Of a DNA stretch of 64,000 bases, positions 10,628-28,691 are shown in pieces. The DNA comes from an uncultured Lachnospiraceae bacterium (GTDB lineage: Bacteria > Bacillota > Clostridia > TANB77 > CAG-508): the NCBI GenBank assembly GCA_964455975.1, contig CAYVYP010000001.1, forward strand, positions 592-64,591, read 5' to 3'. The position numbers were made by a program, and so were the translations under genes. Positions within the stretch are counted from its first letter, which is position 1; the number at the start of each line of letters is the position of its first letter. Below the pieces are notes generated by a model that worked only from the letters and a program-made list of their open reading frames with translations, was not told the DNA's origin and ran no database searches.

Positions 10628-11548
10628 TTATGGATTATATGGTACATTTCCTTGAAGTATTGCTGTTTCCCCTTCTTGGTTATATGCAACAATTGCTACT
10701 TGATTTTCACCAACTTTTAATTTTTTTGTTATTTCTATAATTGTATTATCTGCATTTGATTGTTCTGCTTTAAATATTTCACCATTTATTGCAAAATCTA
10801 TTTTCATCATTTTATCATCTAAATCTGTTGCTTTAATTGTTAAATTTTCTCCATCTTGAAATAATTGTATTTCTGGTTTTGTTATTCCTTTAAATTTCTG
10901 CTCTTTTGTTTGACTTGCATTTTCTTTGTTTACTGCTACTACAGTAAGATTATTTTCACCCTTTTTTATTTCTATTTCTGTTTCTATTTTATTGGGCATG
11001 TCTGAATTTACATCTACTTTTGTTTCTTCTTCATCATTCCATCTGTATGTTATATATGATAAATTTACATCTGATTTTGCTACTATTTTTACATTATTTC
11101 CTGCTATTGCAAATTCTATTTCTGGTTTACTTACACTACTTTCTACAACGTATTTTTTCTCATATCTAACTTCGTATCCTATAGAATCTATTATTCTAAC
11201 AGTTAAAGTGTTATTTCCTTCTGGAATTTCTATATTTTCTGTTATATTAATTTTACCTTTTCCTTGAAGAATATGTTCTTCTTGTTCATTCCAAGTATAT
11301 ATTATTTTGTCAATTGCTTTATCATGATTTATCTTTAATTCAACATAACCTTCAATTTGTGTTAATTCAACAATAGGTTCTGTATAATTAACTTTACTTT
11401 CATTTTCTTTATTTGAAATTATAGCATATGTTGCACCTATTCCTATAACTATACCAAACACAATTATAGCAATTGCAAAAAATTTTATTATTACCTTAAT
11501 TTCTACTGGTCCTTTATTTTTACCACCTGTATATAATATTTGATTCAA
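10628..11548 (-). CDS. Type-II membrane-anchored protein with three tandem Ig-like repeats of about 85 aa each (hypothetical; accessory to the surface-protein locus).
   Basis: N-terminal TM (FFAIAIIVFGIVIGIGATYAII). Three repeats start with (E/K)P(I/E)(V/I)E… and carry W-N-(D/E)-E-E cores. Confidence 0.5.
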   Translation of the reverse strand: MNQILYTGGKNKGPVEIKVIIKFFAIAIIVFGIVIGIGATYAIISNKENESKVNYTEPIVELTQIEGYVELKINHDKAIDKIIYTWNEQEEHILQGKGKINITENIEIPEGNNTLTVRIIDSIGYEVRYEKKYVVESSVSKPEIEFAIAGNNVKIVAKSDVNLSYITYRWNDEEETKVDVNSDMPNKIETEIEIKKGENNLTVVAVNKENASQTKEQKFKGITKPEIQLFQDGENLTIKATDLDDKMMKIDFAINGEIFKAEQSNADNTIIEITKKLKVGENQVAIVAYNQEGETAILQGNVPYNP

Positions 11549-11672
11549 TTTTTTTCACCTCTTAATTTATATTTTAGATTATAACATAGCATTTTTTTTT
11601 TGTAAACAATTGTAAATAATTATATAAAAAAACTCTCCCAGCTTTATCTCTGAGAGAATTTTTATTTTATTT

Positions 11673-26500: not shown

Positions 26501-28691
26501 TTTCTATACTTCTTGCTTTTGCATTTTGTAGTTCCATTTTATTTTCATAACTTGTTGCATTTTCATTTGTATAATATAAATTTATATTATCTTGTTTTGC
26601 TGGTGTTGTTATTTTAACTTTTATATCTGTTACTAATACAATATTTGTACCATTTGTTATTTTTAATTCATTAAATATATTTTGTATTCCTTCTAATGAT
26701 AATTTTATATATATTTTTCCATTTTCAATATATTTATTTGCTCCTACTATTTTTAAACCTTCATTAAATAAAATATTTGCTGATTTTATATTAATATCTT
26801 CAATAGCTTCTGGTAATTCTATTGTAAATGTTGGGTTTATATAAAAATCTGAATATGATTTATCATTATTAAATTCAATTTTTAATTCTACATCTTGGTT
26901 TAATACCATTGTAGATAAATTTGTATTACTTAATTTTATAGTAGCATTTGTTTTTGTTTCTTCTAAATTAATACTTTTAGTTTTTGCTGTATTTTCTGCT
27001 ATTTTATATTCATCCACATTTGTTAATTTTATACTAGCTTTACTTCCAACTTCTAATATTTTAAATTTTTGTATCTCCGCTTTTGAATATATAACATCAG
27101 TTCTTATTTGCTTTGTATTATTTATTTCTAAAATACCTTCTTTTTGTGGTTTTGATGTTTCAATTATTATATTTGAAATATTTTTTCCTTCATAATTAAT
27201 TACAATATTTCCATTTTTATCTACTTCAAAATTTTTATCTATCGTAAATAATAGTTCATTATTTGTATTTAAAATTTTTATTGTTCCATCTTCTCCAAAT
27301 AAATTTAGAAAATCAACTTTATTTATTTGTGTTTTTTCAAAATATGTAATATTTTGATTATTTATAATAGTTTTATTTTTATTTTCATTTTCATCCACAA
27401 AATAATCTTCTAAACTTTCTACTTTTATACTATCTAATACATTTGCATATCCAATATTTAATTTATAATTCACATCATAAGTTGTCTCCCTTTTATTTGC
27501 TTCATCTTGTATTTGATAATTTGAATACATATTTCTTTTTGATATTGAATTGTTTGTTACTTCCACATCATATGATAAAATATCACTAATATTTTCTTTT
27601 AATTCTACTTGATTTATAACTTTGTTTTCTATTAATTTTGTGCTATCATTACTATATATATTTAGGCTAACTTTTGCATTTAAATCTATTTTATCTATTT
27701 CTTGCCCATAACTTTCTTTTCCATATACATATGTAATTTCATAAATATCGCTAGAATTTTCTTCCATTGCTATATTTATAATATTGTTACTATCTGCTTT
27801 ATTTTCTACATTTATTTCTAACTTTCCTGTTTCTTTGTTATATGTAAAATTCTCGTTTGTAAAATTTTCTGCTAATTTACTATTTGTTAAATTTGTTTCA
27901 ACTGCTACTACATTCACATAATTTGGTAATGTATTATTTATTTTTGGTACATCTATTTCAATTTTTGTTTTTGCTACTGGAATACTATTTTTATCTAATG
28001 ACACTGTTACTTTATTCTGTAATAATTTTTCGTTTTCTCCATTTGCTGTATATTTAACATATTTTGATATTTGGCTATTAATATTTATGTTTGCATCTAT
28101 ATTCCAATTTAATTTTAAATTTATTTGTTTTTCTATTTTTACTTCTTTTCCATTATTGTCTATATATGTTCCTTCTAAAATTATTTTATTTGTTTTACTT
28201 AAATTACTTAAATTAAATTCTTTATCTATATTTAATTCTATCTTACTTTCAACTGTAAAATCTGCATTGGCATTTATTTGTTTTAAAATAATTGTATTAT
28301 TGTCTTTATCTAAACTTTCTGTATTATCTACTCCTTGAAGAAATTCACTTGCAACAAAATTACTACTATTTTTAGCATTTTCATCTCTAAATAGTATTTT
28401 TGCATCTTTTAGATATCCTGCACTTTGTACAGAGATTCTTGTATATACTTTATTTTCTTCATTTTTATTTAAAGTTGCTTCATGAACATTTTTTTCATTA
28501 ACTTTAAAATATGCGTCAAATTCAATATTTGAGCTTTGTGTTTTACTATCTTGTCCATCTTGTGCATCTAATGCTAGTACTTCTCCTAGTCCTGCACCTA
28601 TTATTGCAATATTACTAGATAGTATTGCAATAGTTAAATATGTTGCAACAATCTTTGACAATATTTTAAGTCTTTTTGAAAGCATAGACAA
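23586..28691 (-). CDS. Giant surface protein with many Ig-like/Big domains, a CnaB-like domain and a terminal DUF11 domain, ending in an acidic sorting-signal-like C-terminus.
   Basis: Signal peptide MSMLSKRLKILSKIVATYLTIAILSSNIAIIGAGLGEVLALDAQ. CnaB-like segment (ITVKLLSTQNNNIIKTTKTENNGTYSFTELEQGSYLVLFDYDANKYNV). DUF11-like segment (KSTVIIEYTIVVQNEGQIAGYAKKIVDYMPNDLKF). C-terminus NKVQGEDDISSADVLISIKTG plus TM plus KKKILSKEV. Confidence 0.7.
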   Translation of the reverse strand: MSMLSKRLKILSKIVATYLTIAILSSNIAIIGAGLGEVLALDAQDGQDSKTQSSNIEFDAYFKVNEKNVHEATLNKNEENKVYTRISVQSAGYLKDAKILFRDENAKNSSNFVASEFLQGVDNTESLDKDNNTIILKQINANADFTVESKIELNIDKEFNLSNLSKTNKIILEGTYIDNNGKEVKIEKQINLKLNWNIDANININSQISKYVKYTANGENEKLLQNKVTVSLDKNSIPVAKTKIEIDVPKINNTLPNYVNVVAVETNLTNSKLAENFTNENFTYNKETGKLEINVENKADSNNIINIAMEENSSDIYEITYVYGKESYGQEIDKIDLNAKVSLNIYSNDSTKLIENKVINQVELKENISDILSYDVEVTNNSISKRNMYSNYQIQDEANKRETTYDVNYKLNIGYANVLDSIKVESLEDYFVDENENKNKTIINNQNITYFEKTQINKVDFLNLFGEDGTIKILNTNNELLFTIDKNFEVDKNGNIVINYEGKNISNIIIETSKPQKEGILEINNTKQIRTDVIYSKAEIQKFKILEVGSKASIKLTNVDEYKIAENTAKTKSINLEETKTNATIKLSNTNLSTMVLNQDVELKIEFNNDKSYSDFYINPTFTIELPEAIEDINIKSANILFNEGLKIVGANKYIENGKIYIKLSLEGIQNIFNELKITNGTNIVLVTDIKVKITTPAKQDNINLYYTNENATSYENKMELQNAKARSIEIIGVATQELTYAAPTGFITGVELSNFENTGKTINSLTGDGTGKLEIYTEAKTSKYKVTLMNNETKVANNVVVLGRIGFTNNKDLETGKNLGTTMDTILTGAINVTSTKNYTVYYSENKEATKDIALTSNGWTANPSNYSAIKSYLIIFTEDFAIGDESNFEYNYIIPANLEHEQYLYQTTQTNYVLEAETKTSYPNKLGLTTGAGPILGLELSSSAGNGNTVKENEIIKYTIKVTNSGKDTVENVVVKNTIPTGCTYVYYNENIENGPIGYKTNFSKPNLEWAIGTLKKGETKTVEFEVKVGRYLVKGMFKEGDDYYYYKADGTKTKLTELILSNTATVLAKDLSKEVNSNKVDNIVIPAQIKIDISSWENCKLKVDSEYTYKIYVKNIEGKDLENVVINNIVPEGLIYQSSKISFYPTRENDTTNATYKENEKTLNSLINTLKKDEEIILEVTVKIDKLQNGIYEKIIPITANASVNNNEKVEALSYGIKVGAPHIVASIEANPTTKYVVEGQEIEYKLILKNIGSWMDSNVKIKDILPDGLKTVKVKYGTDENYSESIQSNLSEYNTDLVLNVGETFTLILTAKAQELANDIDELAVTNHMTIYGTDVEFTTDKITHIIQPNPENNGESENNGGQTVKYKIEGTAWLDENKNGIREDTENVLEGITVKLLSTQNNNIIKTTKTENNGTYSFTELEQGSYLVLFDYDANKYNVTKYQSNEATENNNSDAISTTINEDGNLRQAAVTDIIKIVRTSKSNIDIGLYESPKFDLKLDKYVSKITVQNGEGTKVYNYENVKLAKADITGKQVAKSTVIIEYTIVVQNEGQIAGYAKKIVDYMPNDLKFSSELNTNWYQDKSGNLYNTELANDELKPGEGREVKLILTKKMTDENLGITNNIAEIAESYNEQGLKDNDSIAGNKVQGEDDISSADVLISIKTGAIIIYTTIAIVLIIIIGSGIYVIKKKILSKEV

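Follow-up and report, generated by a model that had tools for sequence, protein, structure and literature searches.

Does a string of co-oriented genes encoding three giant surface proteins, a sortase and an atypical GGDEF protein form one operon that ties the second messenger cyclic di-GMP (c-di-GMP) to adhesion, or is it a neighbourhood of separate units? The question is raised by a stretch of 64,000 nucleotides (hereafter the window) from an uncultured Lachnospiraceae bacterium, corresponding to positions 592 to 64,591 of contig CAYVYP010000001.1 in assembly GCA_964455975.1. The original prediction for this stretch described a sortase-centred operon headed by the GGDEF protein. Most of the components were correctly described, whereas their architecture was not. 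It is common in Bacillota for a sortase gene to stand next to thioester/isopeptide fibrillar adhesins, and our analysis favors, with a probability of roughly 0.62, a lineage-specific neighbourhood of independently transcribed genes rather than one c-di-GMP-controlled operon. Nothing beyond proximity argues for co-regulation.

According to the open reading frame (ORF) calls, all genes of the string lie on the minus strand. In the order of transcription they encode a 1701-amino-acid (aa) surface protein (23586..28691), a 1763-aa surface protein with a TTG start (18290..23581), a 261-aa DUF6577/AbiEi-like protein (17360..18145), the sortase, also of 261 aa (16516..17301), a 1512-aa thioester adhesin (11673..16211), a 306-aa type II membrane protein (10628..11548), a 260-aa PF06541 membrane protein (9798..10580; Pfam 1.3e-50), a 307-aa protein with receiver (REC) and GGDEF domains (8848..9771) and a 575-aa ORF with a GH2 domain called by Pfam (6853..8580). 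The gaps between them measure 4 nt (1701-aa to 1763-aa), 144 nt (1763-aa to the AbiEi-like gene), 304 nt (sortase to 1512-aa), 124 nt (1512-aa to 306-aa) and 267 nt (REC-GGDEF to GH2). These ORFs, together with their sizes, order, shared orientation, the 4-nt gap and the TTG start, are as first described. The span of 10628-28691 that was given to the operon leaves out the PF06541, REC-GGDEF and GH2 genes named in the same description, and the REC-GGDEF gene, rather than heading the string, comes last in it, before the separate GH2 gene, and is the 3′ gene of a conserved module of its own (306-aa, optional PF06541, REC-GGDEF).

The arrangement in relatives was followed in two surveys of 80 loci each: the first took genome loci that hold sortase orthologues (53-62% identity), the second metagenome loci that hold REC-GGDEF orthologues (64-80% identity). 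Around the sortase, 63 of 72 informative loci have ksgA directly upstream (within 350 nt and on the same strand), and past ksgA there is usually a divergent penicillin-binding-protein gene, so that the sortase is best seen as a core gene whose ancestral place is next to ksgA; in the window, ∼11 kb comprising a lipoprotein gene and the 1701-aa and 1763-aa region separates the two. Homologues of the giant adhesins were found within 10 kb of the sortase in 2 of the 80 loci, and REC-GGDEF likewise in 2 of the 80, which together with the position after ksgA does not fit a ‘sortase-centred’ block. A single related locus (L009) keeps the complete order, with proteins of 41-80% identity but no AbiEi-like gene, while another (L020) has the order ksgA, 306-aa, PF06541, REC-GGDEF, ∼5 kb, sortase.

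Approached from the signalling genes, the same separation appears: no sortase gene was found within 10 kb of the REC-GGDEF orthologues in any of the 80 metagenome loci. The 306-aa gene is immediately upstream of REC-GGDEF in 61 of 62 informative loci, with the PF06541 gene between them in 36 loci and the 306-aa gene directly adjacent in 26. The conserved unit is therefore the 306-aa gene plus REC-GGDEF, sometimes after a thioester adhesin, with the sortase outside it. In 16 of 55 informative loci the gene next upstream of the 306-aa gene encodes an adhesin that resembles the 1512-aa protein, with thioester and CLIPPER domains, and none of these loci has a sortase close by (loci listed for this pairing: L111, L112, L114, L118, L121, L124, L126, L135, L146, L148, L150, L164, L169, L171 and L089-L091). 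It is this recurrent pairing alone, and not the sortase, that hints at any link between adhesins and the GGDDF protein.

The predicted transcription units divide the string in a similar way. Its two internal hairpins are AT-rich and escaped a consensus terminator scan; inspecting the intergenic sequence and folding it brought them to light, and all signals described here are on the minus strand. A terminator-like hairpin with a U-run at the end of the upstream 172-aa lipoprotein gene (28780..28815; -16.7 kcal/mol, z -6.0) marks the 5′ boundary of the adhesin block. Further hairpins with U-runs follow the 1763-aa gene (18219..18255; -16.3 kcal/mol, z -6.0) and the 1512-aa gene (11628..11663; -16.1 kcal/mol, z -4.8), and a strong terminator-like hairpin, also with a U-run, follows REC-GGDEF (8766..8805; -30.7 kcal/mol, z -13); intergenic folding gave no terminator hairpin after the sortase. 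A consensus scan returned promoter-like sites for the AbiEi-like gene (18212-18184), the sortase (17363-17336; TTGAAA-16-TG-TATAAT), the 1512-aa gene (16283-16256) and the 306-aa gene (11606-11578; TTTACA-17-TG-TATAAT), several of these four having an extended -10. From these signals we predict three or four units at the least: 1701-aa plus 1763-aa, the AbiEi-like gene, the sortase, perhaps continuing into the 1512-aa gene, the 306-aa gene plus PF06541 plus REC-GGDEF, and GH2. The internal hairpins at 18255-18219 and 11663-11628 and a gene order kept in 1 of 80 related genomes both speak against the single operon that had been proposed.

The gene between the 1763-aa adhesin and the sortase had been given the right size and place and left as an unknown. 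It can be identified as DUF6577 (Pfam 1.7e-41), with a PADLOC match to AbiEi over its full length (7e-45). The 840-bp segment that holds this gene and its own promoter-like site (17373-18212) is present in the window and in one further locus (L001), and is absent both from the nearest species (L009) and from a contig of the same species in another sample (L002) that is otherwise 99-100% identical to the window; on that contig the terminator of the 1763-aa gene directly adjoins the sortase promoter. The protein thus matches the AbiEi antitoxin/regulator of AbiE type IV toxin–antitoxin systems, but unlike those systems it is encoded by a lone gene on a strain-variable segment, with no AbiEii nucleotidyltransferase toxin gene adjacent, its neighbours being the 1763-aa adhesin and the sortase. 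It is a solitary, mobile and strain-variable AbiEi-like gene and no component of the sortase system.

The sortase itself starts at the ATG at 17301, where 118 of 120 orthologues begin, and the resulting 261-aa protein has an exact match in recorded gene calls. A start at the TTG at 17331, which would give a 271-aa product, was rejected since the exact-match look-up for that product was empty and the orthologues begin at the ATG. The protein consists of the N-terminal peptide MNQILIT, a Lys-rich stretch, one N-terminal membrane helix and a catalytic domain with His179 (VGHNY), TLITC (16567-16581) and Arg258 (KAREV), confirming the sortase with TLITC that had been read from the sequence. It scores 78.9 bits against PF04203 (cut-off 26.6) and 43.4 against the generic TIGR01076 (cut-off 39.35), but passes no class model: class C (NF033745), its best NCBIfam class score, reaches 58.9 versus 160, class E 32.3 versus 160, class D 23.1 versus 165 and SrtD 25.9 versus 140, with no class A match listed. 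The best solved relatives are class A enzymes, at an E-value of only ∼5e-9. The sortase is the sole one in the window, and it has neither a DP[WFY] lid nor a C-terminal membrane helix. With housekeeping class A-type enzymes such as Streptococcus pyogenes SrtA it shares the N-terminal anchor, the His / TLxTC / Arg set and the presence as one conserved copy in a constant chromosomal place, with substrates partly encoded elsewhere. It differs from that type in falling below all NCBIfam class cut-offs, with similarity of E ∼5e-9, in its conserved cytoplasmic MNQILxT and in the motifs that it likely serves, which are not LPXTG.

The three giants around it are, as predicted, secreted proteins with sorting-signal-like tails of three types, and each carries a signal peptide. 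In the 1512-aa protein the signal peptide is followed by a thioester domain (TED; PF08341, 25.0 bits versus a cut-off of 22) with Cys92 (15924-15941) and Gln193/194 (15618-15638), and the corresponding motifs YC[IL][KR]xGxGF (here YCIKGG) and QQxAIW[HY]FTN (here IQQAAIW) are invariant in 13 orthologues; searching the sequences of solved structures with this N-terminus gave no meaningful match. Beyond the TED lie five CLIPPER-type repeats. CLIPPER is the new name of DUF11, a stalk domain of CnaA-like type that has been shown to contain a Lys-Asn isopeptide bond (PMC12617251); the DUF11/CLIPPER matches (PF01345) reach 84.2 and 73.5 bits versus a cut-off of 24.6, and the Lys / NEG / Asn pattern is in register in all aligned repeats of the 1512-aa protein and in the last domain of the 1701-aa protein. 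At the DNA level, blastn shows that adjacent repeat units of the 1512-aa gene (12717-13356) are ∼80% identical, so that the number of repeats could vary by recombination.

The other two giants are less completely matched by Pfam and NCBIfam. The 1701-aa protein has four DUF11/CLIPPER stretches, an SdrD_B domain and a last CLIPPER-like domain, with no family match over its first ∼930 aa. In the 1763-aa protein, which had been described as a thioester/CnaB adhesin, SdrD_B-type domains are present and are the sole Pfam/NCBIfam call, but the Pfam thioester call goes to the 1512-aa protein instead: the 1763-aa protein has no Pfam thioester domain, and its first ∼620 aa match no family. This N-terminal region contains Cys64 (23378-23398) and Gln221 (22907-22924), and the Cys and a Gln-x3-Trp pattern at Gln221 are common to three homologues, namely the 1763-aa protein, its L009 orthologue and a paralogue in the window (40640-44785), making a thioester-like region possible. 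In an hhalign comparison the N-terminus matched solely the domain that follows a TED (95.9%). A search with the first 639 aa returned no homologues at E ≤ 0.001 and hence no deep alignment, and an AlphaFold model from the two-sequence alignment was unusable (pLDDT 35).

A Cys-rich CxxC insert with HCPAHGMGCG and repeated CDTCG motifs occupies roughly residues 450-560 of the 1763-aa protein (window positions 21900-22230); its sole Pfam match is a weak GFA hit under the cut-off. As part of a secreted protein, the insert has the look of a small module stabilised by metal or disulfides. The paralogue just mentioned is a 1381-aa protein (40640..44785, minus strand) with 30% identity over ∼1,200 aa and an LPPLG tail ahead of a membrane helix. 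Its gene is found 12 kb from the block, next to a gene for a 564-aa protein with a prepilin-like N-terminus, indicating that such adhesin genes are scattered and not confined to the neighbourhood of the sortase.

All three giants end in a motif, a membrane helix and a basic tail: SIKTG (23685-23699), helix and KKK in the 1701-aa protein, MPPTG (18389-18403), helix and KK in the 1763-aa protein, and VSTGS (11760-11774), helix and KK in the 1512-aa protein, of which only MPPTG is LPXTG-like. Two types of tail are conserved between species: L-[ST]-[IV]-x-T-G behind CLIPPER domains and x-P-P-[TLF]-G-[EA] in proteins of the 1763-aa type. In their signal peptide, N-terminal thioester Cys and Gln (1512-aa protein), tandem CLIPPER and SdrD-B domains, and C-terminal motif followed by helix and basic tail, the proteins resemble known thioester/isopeptide fibrillar adhesins; unlike those adhesins, they have L-[ST]-[IV]-x-T-G and xPP[TLF]G in place of LPXTG, long N-termini that match no family (∼930 aa in the 1701-aa and ∼620 aa in the 1763-aa protein) and, in the latter, the CxxC insert. 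The sortase subfamily appears to serve these two non-LPXTG tail types.

In the signalling module, the 306-aa protein, assigned by topology and synteny, has the cytoplasmic N-terminus MNQILYT, one membrane helix and three extracellular Ig-like repeats (type II), and the optional middle gene encodes a PF06541 (DUF1113 / CmpB-type) protein that has four hydrophobic segments and ends in a charged tail. The 307-aa protein was assigned by Pfam, alignment and model, with a receiver (PF00072) at 33.2 versus 30.2 and a GGDEF domain (PF00990) at 60.4 versus 23.8. As originally claimed, the receiver lacks the phospho-acceptor Asp and the GGDEF motif reads GGDDF (9151-9165; G203-F207). Asn52 (LIILNEDN, 9607-9630) aligns with the phospho-acceptor Asp53 of PleD and ends the strand of residues 48-52 (strand 3) in a confident model (pLDDT 84.5). 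Both Asn52 and GGDDF are invariant in 18 orthologues of ∼70% identity, which are better conserved than those of the sortase (∼60%) or of ksgA (∼65%). The receiver Lys before Pro105 is also lost, being Asn here and K, A, N, H, I or T in the orthologues. The domain is a pseudo-receiver, with no phosphorylation possible at the customary position.

The suggestion that the protein may be non-catalytic holds up less well. The counterparts of PleD D327, K332, N335 and D344 are kept as D160, K165, N168 and D177, with D160, N168 and D177 invariant in the orthologues; the counterpart of R366 is His201, and an RxxD inhibitory site is absent, the residues before GGDDF being ESENSFVGHI. In the AKxxGR motif, we infer that K293 is kept and that Arg is replaced by Ser298. 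Judged by residues, then, the invariant catalytic site argues for a working nucleotide-binding or cyclase site, and D177 suggests guanine specificity. A profile search of 1.84 billion representatives returned 1,463 clusters (50% identity) at E ≤ 1e-30; in the best 150 of this family, GH[IV]GGDDF is nearly universal and most members have a canonical receiver (Asp, Thr/Ser, KPF), so GGDDF is the hallmark of a large family and the loss of Asp a feature of a sub-lineage. The residues for metal and base binding are also conserved across this family. GSU1937 of Geobacter sulfurreducens, a Hypr-GGDEF enzyme with a GGDDF motif, has been found active (PMC8835794) and is the sole precedent for activity with this motif. 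Given that precedent and the conservation across the family, the equation of GGDDF with inactivity is unsafe and was rejected. Some family members (P0256, P0257, P0259, P0265 and others) have ∼560-570 aa and two extra receiver domains, and others are fused to extra C-terminal domains, P0262 having an apparent EAL-like region; the family is diverse in architecture and apparently uncharacterised in the literature searched.

In its overall design the protein is close to known diguanylate cyclase-type proteins. A Foldseek search with its model returned PleD, WspR and DgcR (E ∼1e-16), with which it shares the two-domain fold with a helical linker and the conserved metal- and base-binding residues. 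It differs from them in the change of Asp to Asn, the lost receiver Lys, GGDDF instead of GG[DE]EF, His in place of R366 and the missing RxxD site, and in being encoded after a single-pass Ig-repeat membrane protein instead of with a kinase. With GSU1937 it shares the GGDDF motif and the lack of an EAL or HD-GYP domain, but GSU1937 has a membrane N-terminal domain and a Ser that specifies cGAMP, in contrast to the guanine-specifying D177 and the pseudo-receiver found here.

Against this background the alternatives can be weighed. If the whole string were one adhesion/biofilm operon, in which REC-GGDEF through c-di-GMP controlled production or anchoring of the three substrates, then its co-orientation, the order common to L009, the module close to the sortase in L020 and the 1512-like adhesin directly before the module in 16 of 55 loci would all find a place. 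Such control would also have a precedent in Clostridioides difficile, where c-di-GMP controls sortase substrates via riboswitches (PMC4591827; PMC6447587). The comparison with the C. difficile proteins CD2831, CD3246 and ZmpI holds insofar as both cases concern Clostridia with sortase-type adhesins and a GGDEF protein encoded nearby, but there riboswitches precede the substrate and protease genes, and here none was found: the window has no Rfam match that reaches a gathering score, and 6000-30700 has none even at E ≤ 1, the c-di-GMP riboswitches included, so the way in which c-di-GMP is known to act on sortase substrates in Clostridia is not seen. Neither a riboswitch or other Rfam element nor a PilZ or other effector was identified, leaving the proposed c-di-GMP link unsupported; the terminator-like hairpins interrupt the string, sortase and module lie apart in nearly all relatives, and REC-GGDEF is not the first gene. 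We regard this single-operon explanation as quite unlikely. Still more improbable, to the point of being nearly negligible, is a sortase-assembled pilus with the giants as tip, shaft and base pilins and the sortase as a class C enzyme. Class C is indeed the best NCBIfam match of the sortase, and a thioester tip and isopeptide-type stalk domains are typical of pili, but the score is far below its cut-off (58.9 versus 160), and the sortase is a core gene beside ksgA in genomes without such neighbours. Compared with pilins, the giants are three to four times as large. We rejected the pilus because the giants lack a YPK pilin motif and an E-box and the sortase lacks the DP[WFY] lid and a C-terminal helix.

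A third explanation, also unlikely, is that the giants, or at least the two without Pro in their motifs, are not sortase substrates, being held by the C-terminal helix with the sortase a mere neighbour. It is in keeping with the Pro-less SIKTG and VSTGS and with 1512-like proteins that bear the same tails at loci where the nearest 10 kb hold no sortase; in vitro, C. difficile SrtB does not cut the similarly Pro-less NVQTG peptide (PMC4371152). However, such proteins can still be substrates of a sortase whose gene lies at another place in the genome, the tripartite signal of motif, helix and basic tail is complete, and the T-G before the helix in L-[ST]-[IV]-x-T-G is kept across many species while the rest of the tail varies, which argues for recognition by an enzyme.

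Several observations also weigh against the neighbourhood of independent units that we prefer, or against parts of it. Many of the metagenome loci are near-identical copies, so that the counts are not independent. The order in L009 and the arrangement in L020 show that proximity recurs and could be selected. The promoter-like matches are no commoner than in shuffled sequence, which leaves the unit boundaries as predictions only, and since no terminator was seen 3′ of the sortase, read-through into the 1512-aa gene is possible. Finally, SIKTG and VSTGS lack the Pro of LPXTG, which, given that the NVQTG peptide was left uncut by SrtB, makes sortase anchoring of the 1701-aa and 1512-aa proteins uncertain.

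On the reading as a neighbourhood of independently transcribed genes, the locus would have come about and would work as follows. A core sortase of housekeeping type would have had its ancestral place directly downstream of ksgA, and in this organism and one related species three accessory fibrillar-adhesin genes would have accumulated on either side of it, with a strain-variable AbiEi-like cassette between the 1763-aa gene and the sortase and a separately conserved signalling module consisting of the 306-aa protein, the optional PF06541 protein and the pseudo-receiver GGDDF protein. The adhesins would be exported by Sec and retained by the C-terminal helix and basic tail, after which the sortase may cut before the Gly of xxxTG and join them to peptidoglycan. 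Stalks of CLIPPER and SdrD-B domains, presumably with Lys-Asn isopeptide bonds, would present the N-terminal thioester domain, which could bond covalently to a host or dietary ligand. REC-GGDDF would probably be a phosphorylation-independent nucleotide cyclase, most likely with c-di-GMP as its product, and its input would probably come via the adjacent membrane protein, not from a histidine kinase.

One feature could still connect the sortase with the signalling module. The sortase (17281-17301; MNQILIT) and the 306-aa protein (11528-11548; MNQILYT) begin with nearly the same peptide, followed in both by a Lys-rich stretch and one membrane helix. Of 120 sortase orthologues, 118 keep MNQILxT, and no other part of the 306-aa family is as well conserved; the codons for the motif differ between the two genes, which implies a constraint on the peptide. 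Among six-frame ORFs of at least 80 aa in 2.66 Mb of related loci, those starting with MNQ[IVL]L are sortase or 306-aa orthologues with one exception, an internal Met in L072, a sampling that is biased because the loci were fetched through these two families. A natural guess from these peptides would be a shared cytoplasmic partner or localisation via MNQILxT, with the pseudo-receiver as a candidate, in which case the candidate docking peptides would be MNQILYTGGKNKG and MNQILITEKLYVTPELK. That MNQILxT is a docking peptide for a common partner, with the pseudo-receiver the obvious one, and so couples the cyclase complex to the sortase, is a long shot.

The GH2 gene downstream of the module is predicted to be a separate unit. 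Its description as a GH2 adhesin was correct as to the GH2 domain, but the 575-aa ORF is not a whole gene: together with ORFs of 1802 aa and 226 aa it makes up one frame of ∼2,650 aa for a GH2 surface glycosidase (394..8580, minus strand), broken by two frameshifts near 6880 and near 1170. The first of these is also found in an independent assembly (L003), and the frameshifts could reflect a pseudogene, assembly error or slippage. The C-terminus of this gene encodes a CLIPPER-like domain, SIATGG and a membrane helix. The window as a whole has ∼25% G+C, with a strongly negative GC skew across the region, and its flanking genes include ksgA, a penicillin-binding-protein gene, a spoIIE-like gene, mreBCD, minC and prfA; the locus is part of the ordinary chromosome of a low-G+C Bacillota bacterium. 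Identical copies of the window's proteins were found in metagenome assemblies only, and the closest related genomes come from uncultured gut ‘Clostridia’ and carry labels like Clostridium sp. CAG:343, CAG:575 and CAG:389.

The locus as such adds little, as the comparative data indicate that its arrangement is not a conserved functional unit. The points of interest are instead the non-LPXTG tails in an abundant gut lineage, the REC-GGDDF family with its Ig-repeat partner, and the MNQILxT tag. A very common sortase subfamily of gut Clostridia fits no curated class, and the non-LPXTG tails bear on the prediction of surface proteomes for uncultured gut bacteria. The sub-lineage of REC-GGDDF proteins without the acceptor Asp, with its constant Ig-repeat partner, represents a possible kinase-independent route into second-messenger signalling. 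Lastly, the MNQILxT tag provides a concrete, testable hypothesis for a link between the sortase and the 306-aa protein, and if it were true, neither a kinase nor a riboswitch would be needed to tie the anchoring of surface proteins to an extracellular signal.

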